Positions 15,001 through 21,000 of a DNA stretch of 59,802 nucleotides are shown here, piece after piece; position 1 is the stretch's first letter, and every line of letters starts with the position of its first letter. The position numbers were made by a program. The DNA lies in the NCBI GenBank assembly GCA_036479435.1, contig JAZGFI010000018.1, positions 1 through 59,802 on the forward strand, in the 5' to 3' direction. Source of the stretch: Planctomycetota bacterium. Its GTDB lineage: Bacteria; Planctomycetota; GCA-002687715; DRQF01.

Positions 15001-18000
15001 TCGGCGGGACGGCCCGGCGTCTGTATCGTCCGCGATCGCCCGAAGAAGTCGCAGCCCTTCTCGCGGATTTAACTCGCCAGGGCGAGCCTTGGCGCGTGAT
15101 AGGGGGTGGAGCCAACTTGTTGGTTTGCGATGGGATTCACGAAGAGGCCATCATCGCGACGGAGAGTCTTGTCGGTTTGACTTTCGCTGACGAAGGCGAA
15201 GCGGGTGGCGCCGTGTTGGTCCGCGCCGCCGCGGGCGAGAGTTTTCCGCGCTTGGTTGCGACAACCGTGCGCATGGCGCTTGAGGGTTGCGAGGCCTTGG
15301 CCGGCATCCCCGGCCAGGTCGGCGGAATCTGCGCGATGAACGCCGGCGGCCGGCAAGCTGAGTTTGGGGCCGTCGTGGCGGAAGTCGAACTCGTCAGCCC
15401 TGAGGGCGAACGACGGTGTCTGTCGAATCGTGACGGAGAGCGTTCGCTTTCATTTTCTTACCGGCGCTGCGAATTGCCTCCGGGAATAGTGACCGCGGTC
15501 ACGCTGCGCTTGGTTCGAGGCGACCCGGCGAACTTGCGTCGCCGCATGTCCGACATCTTGAGCGCCAAAAAGGCCGCGCAGCCTTTGGGCGTGCCCAGCA
15601 GTGGCTGCATTTTCAAAAACCCCGGGGCTGAGAGCGCCGGTTTGCTGATTGAGCGCCTCGGTTTAAAAGGCGAGCGACGCGGCGACGCCGAGATCTCGCG
15701 CCGCCACGGCAATTTTATCCTGAACCGTGGTGCTGCAAGCAGTTACGACGTATTGACTCTCGTCGAGCTGATCGAAGAACGAGCCCAGAATGAGGCTGGA
15801 GTTGAGCTCGAGCGCGAGATCAAGATCTGGGCGGCGACGTCATCAGATTCGCCGACATCGCTCAAGGGAAACCCCCGACCCTCTTTTGAGTCTGAGCCCT
15901 GAGAGATAGTGCAACTTGTCCCCGCAGAGCGATAGCGTCGCGGTGTCACTGGGGGTTCCCGGGGCGCGGCGCCTCACCGTCGCAAACCGTTGGGGGCACC
16001 CCAATTGACGAGGAATACGGGCAGCTTGGTGTTGCTTGGTTCCTCGCCTCTTGGTGGGTCCATGAGGACCTGCCAACTTGCCTGAAGGACGAACAGACCC
16101 CTTCGCAGCGATCCGTCGGATCGCGGTCTTTCGCCCTCGAAAAAACCGAAAGGAAGAACTCATGGACGCTGGAAAATACATCGACCGCCGCCTTCACCCC
16201 GTTCGCCTCGCTATTGGACTCATCAATCACGAGATTGAACTCGCTGGCGGTGAGCCCGTCGTCACGATTGACCGCGAACTGCTCCGCAGCGTGGTCGAAA
16301 CCACGCAGCTGTTTGTCGAAGACTTCGACCGCACTTACGGCAAGATGAAAGAGAAGTCCGGTAAGCACTTCATCAACGCCGCGGCCAACACCAAAGTCGG
16401 CTAAGTCAGCCCTTAGGGTGACCGACAAGAACCCCTTCTTCCGCGGTCTTGTGGCCTCGCCGACTTGCCCCGGCGAGGCCTTTCTCGTGGCACTTTGGCC
16501 GCCTTGGTGCTAGGATCTGGCTATGGGGAAGCGGGTGAAGAAGGTCGAAGCCGCAGGCGACGCTATCGTCTCAAGACGAAGCGTCTCTATGCCGGATGAA
16601 CACCAGCCTGAGGATGTTGATTCTCAAGGCTCATCCGCCGCACCGGCCGCACCGGGCCTCACTCAGATCGTCGTGGTGCTCATTCTTTTTCCCGCCTTGC
16701 TGACCGCCCTGGTTTATCTGGGTGACGCGCTACATGGGTCCGAGCGCTACGAAGTTGATCTGGTCGCCGTCCACTGGAATCCTCCGCCACCATCACGTGC
16801 GATGGCACTCGCCAAGGCCTCTTTGGCCGACCAATCACTGATTGAATTGCGTCGCAGCATCTTTGACCGAGATCTTGGATTTGTGGTCAGGCAGGACTTC
16901 GAGTCCAATCCCTGGGTGCGCCGCGTCGAGTCCGTTCGTCGCATTTTTCCGCGCGGCCTGGAAATCAAGCTCGACTACCGACTTCCCTTTGCGACGGTCG
17001 AGCGCGACGGCGTGTACCTTGTCGCCGACCGCGACGGTGAGCTTTTGCCCATCGAAGGCAGCGAACCGATGTTGCCGTTTCCGATCATCCAGACTCGATC
17101 GGCCGATCCTGACGTCGTCGACAACGAAGACGTCAGCGAAGCCTGGTTTCTCGATGCGGTCCGCGAAGGCGTCGCGGTGCTCCACGATCTCGAACGCGAA
17201 CAAGAGCACGAAGTGTTCGGACGCATTGGCGTGATCGCCATCGACACCAGTAACTTTCAAAACCGCCTCACCGCCAATCGCAGCGAAGTGGTGCTCGTGA
17301 CGAATCGGAGCTGGAGCGATGAGGGTTTAGGGGTGCGCGGCCGTCCGGTCTTAGTGCATTGGGGCCGCAGCAGCAAGCACCGCTACGAGAAAGCCGAAAT
17401 TCCGGTGAAAGTCAAACTGAGGAATTTCCTCGGCATGCTCAATCTGCGGGCGGATCTTCATGGCGTTGACCTGATCGACGTGCGCTATGAAATGCCCTAT
17501 TGGCGCCCCTACATTCGCCCCATCGTTCAGGCCCCTTAGGGCGCCCCCATGGAAGCGACTCCGTCACCCGGCAACATGAGTTCCGTCAACCGCGGTATTA
17601 CCGCGATGATCCTCTCCTTTGTGGCCCTCAGCTTGACCGCTAGTGTCTTGCCGCTGTGGCCGGGGATTCAAGAGCTGCTTCCTTTCGGGTTTTTGACCCG
17701 CGACCGCGCGATGGGCGGCTATGCCTTGGCACTGCTTGGGTTCATGGCCCTGCTGTTTCCCTTGTTTGTGCGTTGTCCGGAAAAAAGCCGGTCCATCGCT
17801 CCCTGGTGGTGGGTCGGCGGCTACGCGATCGTCTTTGCCAGCGTTCCCTTGTTCTTACTGGCATGGATTGCGGGAGTCCATCGCAACGGGGTACTGGCGA
17901 TCTTGCTATGGGCTGGCGTTTTTCACGGCGCCGTGTTGCTGCTGTTGCGCGCTCTGCGTTATCGCATGCGCTTGCTTATCGTCGCCGTCGGGGGGCTTTT

Positions 18001-21000
18001 TGCCTTTGCCTTCCCGTTGATTGACTTCTTTGAAGGACTACTCGGCGGGCAATCTCCGAAGTTCGAGTGGACGCCATTTTCCCGCGTGCTCTCGATCGTT
18101 TACGACTATGCACCGGTTTCTTTGCTCGTCCCCGGATTGACCTTCGCCGCCGTCCAGGTGACTCTTTGGTTGACGCGCGAGCGGCGCGGCAAAGACGAGC
18201 CCCGCAGGCCAAAAAACCAAGGGCCGAATTCCGCTGGCAGCAAAGTCGCGGCTAGCATCTTTGTTTTGGTCATCGCGGCCGGCAGCTTGGCCATGGCGTT
18301 CTACAAGGGGCCGGCAGCAGGAGCGACGAAACCCAGCGTCGCGGATTCGCTGCGCGTCATTCTTCCGAGTGGCAACGCTTTCGTCCCTGGTGCCAGCTAC
18401 CCGATCGGGCTGGTGGCTAAGGCTGGCGTCGGTGAACTAAAAGTGAAGGTTGCGTCGAGAGAGTTTTGGTCCTTCGAAGGAACGAATTCCGCGGCGCCAG
18501 TTTGGATTTATCCCCGTCTTCTCGAGGCCGGAGAGTCGATCGAGATCTTTGACAAGAGCGGTCGCTTGCTGCGGACCCTGAGCCCAAAGCCAACGCCGGG
18601 CCTGATCTTGGCCGTCGACGATGTCGCCAACTCGATGCCTGAGAATAGCAACGAGATGGTTCGCCTTCCGCACCTTGATTTGCCCGATTCTCATATCGGC
18701 TACGATCCTATCACCGCCGTTTGGATCCTAGACTCTGCTTGGCGCGCCTTGCCGCCCAGACAAAGTTCTGCTCTTGCCGACTGGGTTGGCCTCGGCGGCG
18801 ACGTCACCCGATTGGGAGCCAGCGAAAATTCAGAGAGGCGATGGGGCGACGGCCGTTACCACCTCCTGAAGTCTTTGACGCCGATTCTCAGTTCGCCGCC
18901 GAGAGTCCTGGCGCACGAAGCCCTGCACCAAAACTTGTACTCGAATTTCGCACTGCCGAATTGGGGGCGAGTGGACCTCAATCCCGTTTTGATTTTCCTG
19001 GCCATCTACCACCTGGTGTTCGCCCTGATCTTTTTGCTCCCCCTGTACTTAGACGGCAAAAAGAGCTTAGCGGTCTATTTGATATCGGTGGGATTCGTCT
19101 TGGCCTTGGTGGTCGTCGGTGCCCAGTACGCACTCAAAAAGGTCTTTTTCACCGACACTCAGATTTTGCAGCAAAGCCTCGAAGTCTTGGTGGTACGGGG
19201 GGAAGGGCGTGACACCTTGCTCCAGCGCGACGAACTCGCGTGTTTCGCATCCTTCAATGGGGCTCCGGGGGATCTCAGCTTTGATCGCGCGTTTGCCCCG
19301 CGGCCTCTTTTCGAAAACCGTGCCCAGGGTTCAGGATCGGTACGAGTCGACGGGGATCGCCTAAAGTTCGAAAACGTTCGTTTGGATCGATTTCGGCGCA
19401 AGCAGATTTTCCTGCTGCGATCGCTGGAGGAAGCCCCGTTTACTTGGACGCAAAAGGCCGATGAATTCGTTTTGGAGCCGAAACTCGGGCAAAAAGACAG
19501 CGCGAGATTTTGGGCGGCGAAGCCCTTGGTGGCCTTTGCCCGGCTGAATGGGCGTCTTCATCGAGCGTCCTACCAAGGTGGGCGTCTCAAAGTCGATAAG
19601 ATGCCCGATCCCGCATCTTGGCAGGGGGTCCTCCCGCAGAAGATTCGCAAGGACAACGGCATTCCCTTCCTCCGTCATGTTCTCGGCCGCTACGCGCCGC
19701 CGCAAAAACCGGTCGCGGTCGTGCTCTTTTCGGGGCTCCGTGGTCTTCATCAAGGGGAGGGCTATCTGCTGCGCAGAGACATCCTTCAGCTGCTGATCTT
19801 GCCTTTTGACGCGCCATAGAGGGAAAATTTGTGCTTAAATCGTTGGGGCTGAGTTGCTTGTGTCGGTTTCGGGCGATTGTGGCCCCGGGGCAAATCTTCC
19901 CAGGGGCAGGGTTGAGGCTCGAACTCGCCCTGCTATTATCTTCGTCCCTCTGGCGGGCTTGGGGCCCGAAGCAGAAGTCATCCGCGACAAAGAGATTGCG
20001 AACAATGAAGTCATTCGTGGCAAAAAGCGCCGAAACTGATCGTGAATGGCATCACGTCGATGCGACCGATCAGATCTTGGGGCGCCTCGCGGTTCGGGTC
20101 GCGCAGGTCTTGATGGGCAAGCACCGACCGACCTACACCCCCGGTGTTGATACCGGCGATTTCGTGGTGATCACGAACGCCGAGAACATCCGGGTGACCG
20201 GTCGCAAAGCCGAACAAAAGGTTTACCGTCACCACACGCAGTGGATCGGTGGCCTCAAAGAGATCTCTTATCGCACCATGATGGAAAGACACCCCGAGCG
20301 CATCATTGAGCTCGCGGTGCGCCGCATGCTGCCCAAGACCAAGCTCGGTCGTAAGATGCTCTCGAAGTTGAAGGTCTACGCTGGACCTGACCATCCGCAC
20401 ACTGCGCAAAACCCGTCGCCCTCGACCCTAAGAGCTAAGGAATAACACGTGGCCGTAGACACCACTTTCACTTGGGGCACGGGACGCCGTAAATCATCGG
20501 TCGCCCGCGTCCGGATCAAGCCGGGCACCGGCTCCTTCACCATCAACAAACGCCAGATGACGGAGTTCTTTCCGCGTCCGGATCACAAGTACGAATGCAC
20601 TTCACCCCTCAACGACACCGACTCTCGGGAACGCTTCGACATCTTCGTCAACGTTCGCGGTGGCGGACTGAGCGGTCAAGCCGGGGCCATCCGAATGGGA
20701 TTGGCCCGCGCTTTGTGCAAGATCGATGAGAGCCTTATTCCCGAGCTTCGCGCGAACGATCACACGACGCGTGATAGTCGCATGAAAGAGCGCAAGAAGT
20801 ACGGTCTGGCCGGCGCTCGCCGAGCCTTCCAGTTCTCGAAAAGATAGGCCTCGGTCTAAGACTCCGCTTTCCAGCGGGTCTCAATGTCTCAAACACCCGG
20901 CGACCAAGGTCCTTCACCTCGGTCGCCGGTTTTTTTGTGGGCCTTGATGGCCTTCTATTTTGCTCATCGGTAGCGATTCTTTAGGTCCCGAAGCCGCCTT

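Follow-up and report, generated by a model that had tools for sequence, protein, structure and literature searches.

What stands at the far end of the dcw cluster in an uncultured planctomycete where ftsQ is followed by neither ftsA nor ftsZ, and could these proteins belong to a division machine that works without FtsZ? We addressed this question in a window of 59,802 nucleotides (the whole stretch of DNA that was analysed) from a Planctomycetota genome, and compared the locus with those of other members of the phylum.

The distal dcw cluster and its divergent FtsQ

The upstream dcw genes (3762..15902, + strand) were observed in the order mraZ (3762-4295), mraW (4180-5178), a probable ftsL-like gene (5184-5471), ftsI (5153-7381), murE (7542-9101), murF (9152-10540), ftsW (10537-11718), a LysM protein gene (11963-12643), murC (13238-14953) and murB (14937-15902), all assigned by Pfam except the ftsL-like gene, which was recognised as an ORF between mraW and ftsI. 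These are followed on the + strand by g00275 (16162..16404, 80 aa), g00276 (16523..17539, 338 aa) and g00277 (17549..19819, 756 aa), the last starting 9 nt 3' of the g00276 stop. Directly 3' of g00277 are rplM (19831-20445) and rpsI (20449-20847), also on the + strand and assigned by Pfam (together 19831..20847), and the same junction recurs across many families. Our ORF map and Pfam assignments confirmed the gene order and family calls of the initial annotation. The ftsL-like ORF is missing from the gene list of that annotation. Genes for mraY, murD, murG and ddl were absent from the dcw cluster of the source genome, and the two MraY-family (Glycos_transf_4) matches were both located on other contigs. 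There was no cultured carrier among the named records.

A search with PF00091 (Tubulin/FtsZ) returned no match in the source genome, which is 92.25% complete, nor, across the order, did any of 23 genomes exceed the cut-off; as a control, matches were obtained in 13 of 14 model genomes. The absence of a tubulin/FtsZ gene reported earlier for this genome and its order was therefore found again here, with the caveat that sub-threshold matches occurred in 3 of the 23 genomes, all from genus g10. The one of these three that was scanned, in genome G017, is a 607-aa FHA-domain protein scoring 27.5-29.9 bits, below the cut-off of 33. No FtsA gene was found in the 92%-complete genome, its FtsA-domain matches being PilM (two) and MreB. 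Tubulin-family matches over the cut-off were observed in 8 of 301 Planctomycetota genomes, and g00275 was present in none of the eight.

The second of the three genes, g00276, encodes a real, divergent FtsQ. Its POTRA_1 match (E 3.8e-4; 21.1 bits, where the cut-off is 23) reproduced exactly the below-threshold value given before, and a profile of 20 homologues (alignment A4) returned as its two top PDB matches the FtsQ of E. coli (8hhf_Q, E 0.0012) and of P. aeruginosa (8bh1, E 0.039). Seven of these homologues matched POTRA_1 and three matched FtsQ_DivIB_C at E <= 0.01. As in FtsQ/DivIB, a single transmembrane helix (~residues 47-68), here preceded by a cytoplasmic tail, leads into a POTRA-like region and a beta domain, a conserved PWV motif aligns to E. 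coli FtsQ, and the gene is located after murB in the dcw cluster. Unlike FtsQ/DivIB, the protein falls under the Pfam cut-off, ftsA and ftsZ are not downstream, and just an ftsL-like ORF is present; the loss of FtsB, the canonical periplasmic partner of FtsQ, is reported for Planctomycetota (PMC10632474).

Gene order was compared using one locus from each g00275-positive genome (77 loci from 301 sampled genomes). An FtsQ-like gene was observed 3' of g00275, on the same strand and within 3 kb, in 72 of the 77 loci and in many families, with ddl lying between the two genes in 14 of the 72. Three of the five loci without an FtsQ-like gene reach a contig end. Upstream, murB was located within 1.8 kb of g00275 in 49 of 77 loci, while rpsI was found downstream in 34. 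The three genes had been described as conserved and syntenic, and in this sample their link to FtsQ is both stronger and wider than first stated.

Architecture and affinities of the membrane protein g00277

Transmembrane prediction placed nine helices in g00277. An AF2 model from a 31-row alignment (pLDDT 87.3, pTM 0.83) improved on the scores of the initial model (pLDDT 78, pTM 0.70) and reproduced its architecture, an ABC-2-like membrane part with periplasmic beta-rich domains. Residues 11-213 (17579..18187, + strand) form a six-helix bundle like that of ABC-2 (type V ABC) permeases. The VIA-align matches include NosY (7o0y_E, Z 10.4, 196 aligned, rmsd 5.4, 16% identity), ABCG1 (7oz1_A, Z 10.5) and CcmB, KpsM and PmtCD (Z 8.2-9.8), values that are all under the tool's bar of ~13 for helical bundles, ~10 being in the range it calls common. 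By structure matches, the periplasmic residues 262-456 (18332..18916, + strand) comprise an Ig/macroglobulin-like beta sandwich (262-351, Z 7.5-8.7) and a ThuA-like, class-I-glutamine-amidotransferase-like alpha/beta domain (351-456; 4jqs_A, Z 7.8; STM3548 2gk3, Z 7.2). The TM8-TM9 hairpin (residues 475-533; 18971..19147, + strand), defined from alignment A2 and the model, is the best-conserved block of g00277. W472, H488, F491, F495, P498, D502, K505, Y510 and S513 are invariant among the 31 proteins of A2, and D502 and K505 are located in the cytoplasmic turn of the hairpin. The modelled C-terminal domain (residues 537-756; 19157..19816, + strand) is beta-rich, periplasmic by topology, and weakly matches mu-homology domains (Z 7.0-7.1, rmsd 4.5-5.6; Foldseek E 2.7e-3). 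As modelled, g00277 is an inner-membrane protein whose Ig-like/ThuA-like module and beta-rich domain face the periplasm, with an almost invariant helix hairpin linking them.

We found no Pfam family for g00277 at E <= 0.1, as had been noted for both g00275 and g00277, and no NCBIfam family at E <= 1. The 31 family members also gave no Pfam family, with ABC-2 and GldG unmatched even at E <= 1 and a faint DUF4350 match in one member. All 23 genomes of the order contain a homologue, in agreement with the count given previously. The earlier figure of only two other clusters, in contrast, was understated, since an exhaustive phmmer search of 1.84 billion representatives returned 50 other proteins at E <= 0.001 and 25 matches, the query itself included, at <= 1e-30.

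The initial annotation proposed that g00277 acts with FtsQ as FtsEX does elsewhere. Both FtsX and g00277 are polytopic, carry a periplasmic domain and are encoded with division genes. FtsX, however, has four MacB-type helices and depends on the FtsE ATPase, whereas g00277 has nine helices and no FtsE-like neighbour. A four-helix FtsX/MacB type was rejected for g00277 on its fold matches to type-V ABC permeases (NosY, ABCG). In the slot loci examined no ATPase gene adjoins a g00277-type protein, and in the class loci g00277 lies between ftsQ and the ribosomal protein genes, thus leaving no room for one. The ATPase-coupling helix of type-V ABC permeases is found in the TM2-TM3 cytoplasmic loop; this loop is unconserved in g00277, and the conserved residues of the bundle are on the periplasmic side (A2). 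With no nearby ATPase gene, an unconserved loop where coupling was presumed and a different type of fold, the FtsEX analogy is not supported, and ATP-driven action of this kind is unlikely.

It is possible, though we consider it somewhat improbable, that g00277 has a general role in the envelope or in transport, as an ABC-2-type permease fused to a GldG-like auxiliary module whose ATPase is encoded elsewhere or is lacking, and that its place between ftsQ and rplM reflects operon history rather than division. For residues 11-213, every top fold match is a type-V ABC permease, and g00277 shares with these the six-helix bundle with a short additional helix inserted between TM5 and TM6, superposing at Z 8.2-10.5 over 173-206 residues (NosY of NosDFY, 7o0y and 7znq; ABCG1; CcmB; KpsM). 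NosY itself acts with a periplasmic partner protein. In contrast to these permeases, g00277 has no family match, no ATPase gene nearby and an unconserved TM2-TM3 loop, and its bundle is fused to three more helices and ~440 periplasmic residues. The likeness to GldG-type, ThuA-like and DUF4350 proteins is one of layout, in that transmembrane helices flank a periplasmic alpha/beta domain which is connected to an ABC-2-like permease; for GldG it is drawn from the domain architecture of GldG-type ABC-2 auxiliary components, and the GldG family itself is unmatched by g00277.

The distribution of these domains bears on the same point. The ThuA-like domain gave domain-level matches in 150 of 301 genomes, in large membrane proteins mostly distant from the dcw cluster, and is a general envelope module; in the Atlas, the structure neighbours of g00277 come from Chloroflexota and Binatota and are uncharacterised, some of them carrying DUF7408. 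In the source genome, however, g00277 is single copy, and in all 13 class loci that reach it the gene follows ftsQ (nine of these extend to rpsI). A g00277-type protein was detected by HMM in the post-ftsQ slot of at least 26 of 77 loci. The slot protein of family f6 is related to g00277 (hhalign 97.2%), those of f57 and f36 share its periplasmic core (hhalign of A2 against A5, 94.6%, E 6.7e-8, residues 264-422), and the same core was observed in the slot in families f6, f21, f36, f45, f57 and f96. Families f25 and f93 have an empty slot, with rplM-rpsI directly after ftsQ (gap ~0.5-0.9 kb), and g00277 is therefore not a universal FtsQ partner.

The g00275 family

The strongest new result of this analysis is the family of g00275, a small soluble cytoplasmic protein. 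The family is unnamed, and a profile search gathered 685 clusters of ~80-95 aa with a common start and end; the close relatives form 17 clusters (69-100% identity), all of 79-86 aa. The gene is under purifying selection, with dN/dS of 0.02-0.17 and saturated synonymous sites. Carriers had been counted as 43 of 201 Planctomycetota genomes, and in our wider sample they numbered 69 of 301 by single sequence and 77 of 301 by profile. The protein was also said to be far more conserved than g00277, which is borne out in same-family relatives, where g00275 is 75-83% identical and g00277 only 36-39%. In genus g6 of the same class, ftsQ and g00277 are kept and g00275 was found in 0 of 3 genomes, so g00275 is dispensable there. 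No Pfam family was matched at E <= 0.1 (scan of a 108-aa upstream-extended frame), no NCBIfam family at E <= 1 (80-aa form), and no PDB relative was found. The AF2 model (pLDDT 78) has a confident fold over residues 1-60. Two helices (residues 3-27 and 38-65) make a hairpin, which probably pairs with another to give a four-helix bundle. A variable linker connects the hairpin to a basic C-terminal peptide that is conserved, reading ...KHF.N.AA.TKVG in g00275 and KKFV..A...KV in other families.

Between g00275 and ftsQ lies a spacer of 118 nt in which a terminator scan identified a GC-rich stem-loop (16453..16480, + strand). Nine of its 10 base pairs are G-C, and a T-rich stretch follows it. In relatives from families f1, f6, f45 and f66 the spacer likewise forms strong hairpins, and none was found in f2 and f4, where the spacer is just 11-35 nt. 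The stem-loop might terminate transcription in part or stabilise the RNA.

Such a hairpin would allow g00275 an expression level unlike that of ftsQ, as might be expected if g00275 were a small regulator rather than a structural component of a divisome, perhaps a nucleic-acid- or enzyme-binding four-helix bundle that tunes distal dcw expression or a Mur enzyme and is linked to ftsQ through co-regulation; its absence from f2 and f4 is at odds with this reading, which we regard as improbable. The protein has no membrane segment and a basic first helix (RRLHPVR stretch), but it matched no family or fold that binds DNA or RNA. Its position directly 3' of murB in many loci would fit a regulator, yet the linkage to ftsQ (72/77) is tighter than that to murB (49/77). 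While its very high conservation suits a highly conserved partner, the conserved C-terminal peptide behind a variable linker is more like a protein-docking motif. That the ORF is no gene, its conservation being due to, for example, an RNA element or to open frames arising by chance in source DNA of 58-62% G+C where spurious ORFs are frequent on both strands, is refuted by the dN/dS values and opposed by the shared start and end of the 685 clusters and the confident fold.

A possible place in division without FtsZ

We see about an even chance that g00275-g00276-g00277 represent the distal, lineage-specific end of the dcw operon in Planctomycetota that make peptidoglycan and lack FtsZ and FtsA, where they would serve as FtsQ-centred accessory parts. 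The three proteins may be accessory to a septal wall-synthesis complex centred on FtsQ (FtsQ, the FtsL-like protein, FtsW and FtsI), in which g00277 would act as a membrane and periplasmic scaffold or handle lipid-linked wall precursors, and g00275 would serve in the cytoplasm as an adaptor, docking via its C-terminal peptide. The cytoplasmic tail of FtsQ is unconserved and therefore offers no obvious docking site for g00275, which also suits the regulator reading above. For the FtsQ-centred reading we infer physical contact, a location at the division site and an effect on division.

In Planctopirus limnophila, the one planctomycete with genetics, ftsQ, ftsW and ftsI are reported to be dispensable (PMC10632474, PMC12283558), ftsQ itself in PMC10632474; dcw membership is therefore no proof of a division role in the phylum. 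With conserved gene order as their sole link to division, g00275 and g00277 are good candidates for components of a division apparatus that would work without FtsZ.

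The dcw cluster, its FtsQ, and searches for FtsZ and FtsA

Pfam matches delineated a dcw cluster on the forward strand comprising mraZ (3762-4295), mraW (4180-5178), ftsI (ORF 5153-7381), murE (7542-9101), murF (9152-10540), ftsW (10537-11718), murC (13238-14953) and murB (14937-15902). These were followed on the same strand by g00275 (16162-16404), encoding an 80-aa protein, g00276 (16523-17539; 338 aa), g00277 (17549-19819; 756 aa) and rplM-rpsI (rplM ORF 19831-20445, the pair ending at 20847). Past rpsI the strand switches, with a ComEC-like gene and a histidine kinase. The order described in the initial annotation, in which g00275-g00276-g00277 follow murB and precede rplM-rpsI with no FtsZ, was confirmed. 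The genes mraY, murD, murG and ddl were absent from the window's dcw cluster, and two MraY-family (Glycos_transf_4) matches were observed on other contigs of the genome.

Several smaller features were also observed along the cluster. A 95-aa ORF (5184-5471, +) lies between mraW and ftsI, the normal site of ftsL; its product combines a coiled coil with an N-terminal membrane helix, matched no Pfam family, and is FtsL-like by position and architecture. Because the long ftsI ORF (from 5153) overlaps this ORF in another frame, ftsI probably starts near 5531. The interval between ftsW and murC, the usual site of murG, is occupied by the gene of a protein that is anchored in the membrane and carries two LysM domains (11963-12643, +), and a homologue occupied the same place in 9 other genomes from several families. 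An 83-aa ORF between ftsW and the LysM gene (11715-11966, +), lacking both a family assignment and a membrane segment, is perhaps not a real gene, since the ftsW-LysM gap of a same-family relative is too short to contain it. The rplM ORF as listed encodes 204 aa, with the L13 domain beginning at residue 71, and its true start is probably near 20000; a sigma-70-like promoter match was found at 19912-19939.

The initial annotation had noted a weak FtsQ-type POTRA domain in g00276, and the match to POTRA_1 (PF08478) fell below the curated cut-off (21.1 bits, cut-off 23, E 3.8e-4). Among 20 homologues of g00276, POTRA_1 was matched in 7 at E <= 0.01 and FtsQ_DivIB_C in 3. The profile of these homologues, compared with all PDB sequences, upheld the FtsQ identity: E. 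coli FtsQ (E 0.0012) and P. aeruginosa FtsQ (E 0.039) were its top two matches, the former aligned over the POTRA region as well as the membrane helix. A hydropathy scan of g00276 gave one hydrophobic segment (37-71), the helix of which aligns across the homologues, and the protein has the bitopic topology of FtsQ, with a short cytoplasmic tail (unconserved among the homologues), one transmembrane helix and a periplasmic body. Its location after murB at the distal end of the cluster is also that of FtsQ/DivIB. Judged by its sequence, g00276 is FtsQ.

No Tubulin/FtsZ family match was found in the window's genome (92.25% complete), and none of the 23 genomes of the order, which make up the entire class within the genome collection used, had a match above the cut-off, while the control was positive in 13 of 14 model genomes. 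This agrees with the earlier claim that genome and order lack a tubulin/FtsZ gene. Sub-threshold matches occurred in three genomes, all of one genus. The strongest of these, in the one genome scanned (G017, locus L116, 973-2796, -), was a 607-aa FHA-domain protein with a tubulin/FtsZ GTPase-like region (27.5 bits, cut-off 33), which could be a divergent tubulin-family protein; it was not found in the window's genome. Across the phylum sample, 8 of 301 Planctomycetota had a Tubulin/FtsZ match above the cut-off. None of these eight carried g00275, an absence of little weight given how uncommon FtsZ is across the phylum. FtsA-domain matches in the window's genome numbered three, namely two PilM proteins from pilus clusters and MreB; therefore, FtsA was likewise not found in this genome. 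Another of its contigs (C144; locus L051, 696-11763) carries a type IV pilus-like cluster coding for a PilM-like protein of 566 aa and a pseudopilin-like protein, together with a long TPR protein and two proteins with FHA domains, one of which is a sigma-54 activator.

The small protein g00275 and its pairing with ftsQ

Homologues of g00275 were observed in 69 of the 301 sampled Planctomycetota by tblastn and in 77 by profile, with an almost all-or-none occurrence per family. Twenty of the 23 genomes of its own class carried the gene; the remaining three, small genomes of a single genus, retained murB-ftsQ-g00277-rplM-rpsI. Gene order was surveyed at a single locus per carrier genome (77 loci), with every ORF scored by custom HMMs. 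An FtsQ-like gene lay downstream of g00275 on the same strand within 3 kb in 72 of the 77 loci, 14 of which had ddl in between. The FtsQ HMM was built from 20 of the 72 FtsQ sequences, leaving 52 as independent detections. Three of the five loci lacking ftsQ stop at a contig end, one has ddl with no ftsQ detected, and one has neither. Further, murB was found within 1.8 kb upstream of g00275 in 49 of the 77 loci and rpsI within 7 kb downstream in 34. Just past the g00275 stop, a GC-rich hairpin of 10 pairs runs into a T-rich stretch (16453-16480, +). This element may set unequal expression of g00275 and ftsQ, hinting at more g00275 than FtsQ; strong hairpins were also observed in the g00275-ftsQ spacer of families f1, f6, f45 and f66, and not in that of f2 and f4.

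A word-indexed search returned 17 clusters at 69-100% identity to g00275, every one 79-86 aa, and a profile from 21 genomic homologues reached 685 clusters in the 5.8-billion-protein set. None of the 120 clusters listed had a Pfam domain, and their names were 'hypothetical' except for one JGI label ('RNase adaptor protein for sRNA GlmZ degradation'). Where an organism name was given, it was that of an unclassified Planctomycetes/Planctomycetota bacterium or simply 'bacterium'; the named records showed no cultured carrier, and one set of records was entirely labelled MAG. Pairwise dN/dS within the family was 0.02-0.17, with synonymous sites close to saturation. Searches of Pfam, NCBIfam, PDB sequences and PDB folds found no relative: the best PDB sequence match (E 0.012) was an unrelated DUF87 protein, Foldseek returned nothing from the PDB at E <= 0.001, and the neighbours by Atlas features were planctomycete clusters without names. 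We conclude that g00275 is a real, highly conserved small protein without prior description.

The AlphaFold2 model of g00275 (pLDDT 78) has two helices, 3-27 and 38-65 (pLDDT 82-94), and a low-confidence tail. A wider alignment resolved this tail into a variable-length linker and a basic peptide that is conserved, KKFV..A...KV, to which the protein's own class adds a final G. ZapA, FtsB/DivIC, FtsL and SepF were absent from a Pfam scan of 21 members (E <= 1), and the hairpin fold is too simple to exclude kinship with them. An amphipathic C-terminal membrane tether of the FtsA/MinD type was considered and not found in the class: the helical hydrophobic moment of the last 14 residues was mostly 0.04-0.31 (0.41 in one sequence) and rose above that of shuffled sequences in just one case out of 10, with greater values (0.36-0.53) in some other families. 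Plim_0010 of P. limnophila, located between ddl and murB (insertion index 0.156), was considered as a homologue of g00275, and homology could not be demonstrated. We favour a role for g00275 as a cytoplasmic adaptor that docks through its C-terminal peptide, for which the main rival is a regulatory role.

The membrane protein g00277 and the slot after ftsQ

An exhaustive phmmer search over 1.84 billion representatives recovered 50 proteins besides g00277 itself at E <= 0.001. The model built from 31 full-length members (pLDDT 87.3, pTM 0.83) has 9 transmembrane helices. Residues 11-213 form a six-helix bundle resembling NosY (Z 10.4), ABCG1 (Z 10.5), CcmB, KpsM and PmtCD; in a wide structure search with this region the top 12 rows belonged without exception to membrane domains of ABC transporters, chiefly type-V (ABC-2) permeases, at Z 8.7-10.5, a level at which, as the structure tool notes for helical bundles below about 13, the likeness may reflect a merely common arrangement. 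A seventh helix (229-250) is followed by an Ig/macroglobulin-like sandwich (262-351, Z about 8), a ThuA-like alpha/beta domain (351-456, Z 7.2-7.8), a helix hairpin (478-533), and a beta-rich domain (537-756) with weak mu-homology-like matches only (Z about 7). The ThuA-like matches (4jqs_A, Z 7.8; STM3548, 2gk3, Z 7.2), which bear on a possible glutamine-amidotransferase-like alpha/beta fold set between membrane helices as in GldG/ABC_transp_aux, covered about 100 residues, with Z again in the common range. Since all of these Z values lie within the range that the tool calls common, the fold assignments are leads and not proof. Under an ABC-2 permease topology, the two large soluble parts of the model would lie in the periplasm.

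Conservation was greatest in the TM8-TM9 hairpin, with invariant H488, D502, K505, Y510 and S513. The conserved residues of the bundle (P35, L36, R51, P100, A105, I107, G109, V110) map to periplasmic helix ends in the model and 31 sequences, and the consensus of the 31 has zero conserved residues in the TM2-TM3 cytoplasmic loop. The 31 members matched no Pfam family at E <= 1, including the ABC-2 membrane family, save for one faint DUF4350 match (E 0.02), and residues 262-456 had no sequence match to GldG/ABC_transp_aux at the same threshold. The start of g00277 lies 9 nt downstream of ftsQ, and ftsQ preceded g00277 in all 13 class loci that reach it. In the 9 of these loci that extend past g00277, ribosomal protein genes come next, with rpsI within about 2.2-2.9 kb of the g00277 start; no ATPase gene was found in the operon across these loci.

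These observations weigh against the proposal of the initial annotation that g00277 acts with FtsQ as FtsEX does elsewhere. FtsX is a four-helix, MacB-type protein with an FtsX Pfam domain and an FtsE partner, whereas g00277 has 9 helices, no Pfam FtsX match and no adjoining ATPase gene. Unlike an ABC-2 permease, it also has neither a conserved TM2-TM3 coupling element nor an ATPase gene in its operon. FtsEX-like action is unlikely because the fold type differs and both a nearby ATPase gene and a conserved coupling element are absent.

Outside the class, the gene in the slot after ftsQ was variable. Proteins homologous to g00277 occupied it in four families, f6 (hhalign 97.2%), f45, f21 and f96 (HMM E 2e-8 to 1e-24 for the last three). 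Over the whole set of 77 loci, a g00277-type protein was detected by HMM in 26. In f57 and f36 the slot is filled by shorter proteins. In most of them one or a few helices at the N-terminus stand in for the six-helix bundle, and in one the whole set of helices is present. With g00277 these proteins have in common the Ig-like and ThuA-like core (profile-profile 94.6%, E 6.7e-8) and the succession of a helix, a loop, a helix hairpin and a C-terminal domain. Only the profile-profile comparison matched, as a single f57 sequence against the alignment of 31 gave an hhalign probability of 2.6%. In f25 and f93, rplM-rpsI directly followed ftsQ. Another variant, in f46 (G137, locus L037, 4537-8988, -), was a Ser/Thr protein kinase of 1483 aa that has membrane segments. 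The ThuA-like domain alone matched in 150 of the 301 genomes, mostly elsewhere in the genome; therefore, the module itself is not division-specific. The reading of g00277 as a general envelope protein is a substantial rival, though less likely than not.

Relation to division without FtsZ

The initial annotation had proposed g00275, g00276 and g00277 as division proteins of an FtsZ-less lineage. The three genes are real and under selection, g00276 being an FtsQ, and their order is kept across deep divergence in lineages lacking FtsZ and FtsA; the FtsEX-like action is unlikely. Gene order is the evidence from which we infer that the three proteins may act together on septal wall synthesis. In P. 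limnophila, the one genetically tractable planctomycete, ftsQ, ftsW, ftsI and most mur genes are dispensable (PMC10632474, PMC12283558). In this phylum, dcw membership is weak evidence of a division role.

A bolder joint reading, which we consider improbable, is that g00275 organises a divisome free of FtsZ and FtsA and forms with g00277 and FtsQ a new phylum-specific division module. Under this reading g00275 would be the missing cytoplasmic organiser, self-associating through its helical hairpin, and its tethered, conserved C-terminal peptide would dock onto membrane parts of the divisome. Such a layout of core, flexible linker and docking peptide is the one by which FtsZ reaches FtsA and ZipA. 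The invariant helix hairpin of g00277 would then relay a signal through the membrane to its periplasmic domains, which would act on FtsQ and the wall synthases. A complex prediction for g00277 225-756 with g00276 40-338, run with alignments and no controls, scored 0.00 twice and is uninformative on binding.

A full-text literature search returned no title or abstract describing the g00275 or g00277 family. The g00275-ftsQ pair is the most valuable new point of this analysis, placing an unnamed small-protein family of 685 clusters ahead of ftsQ in about a quarter of the sampled planctomycete genomes. Together with the membrane proteins that share a common periplasmic core directly after ftsQ in several families, it extends what looked like an oddity of one genome to a pattern across the phylum. 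The mechanism of FtsZ-free division in Planctomycetota is still called unknown in reviews and in essential-gene studies (PMC12283558, PMC10632474, PMC5147048). Our findings bear on this long-standing question, and the g00275 and g00277 families supply defined constructs with which interactions (two-hybrid, pull-down), localisation and structure can be studied.
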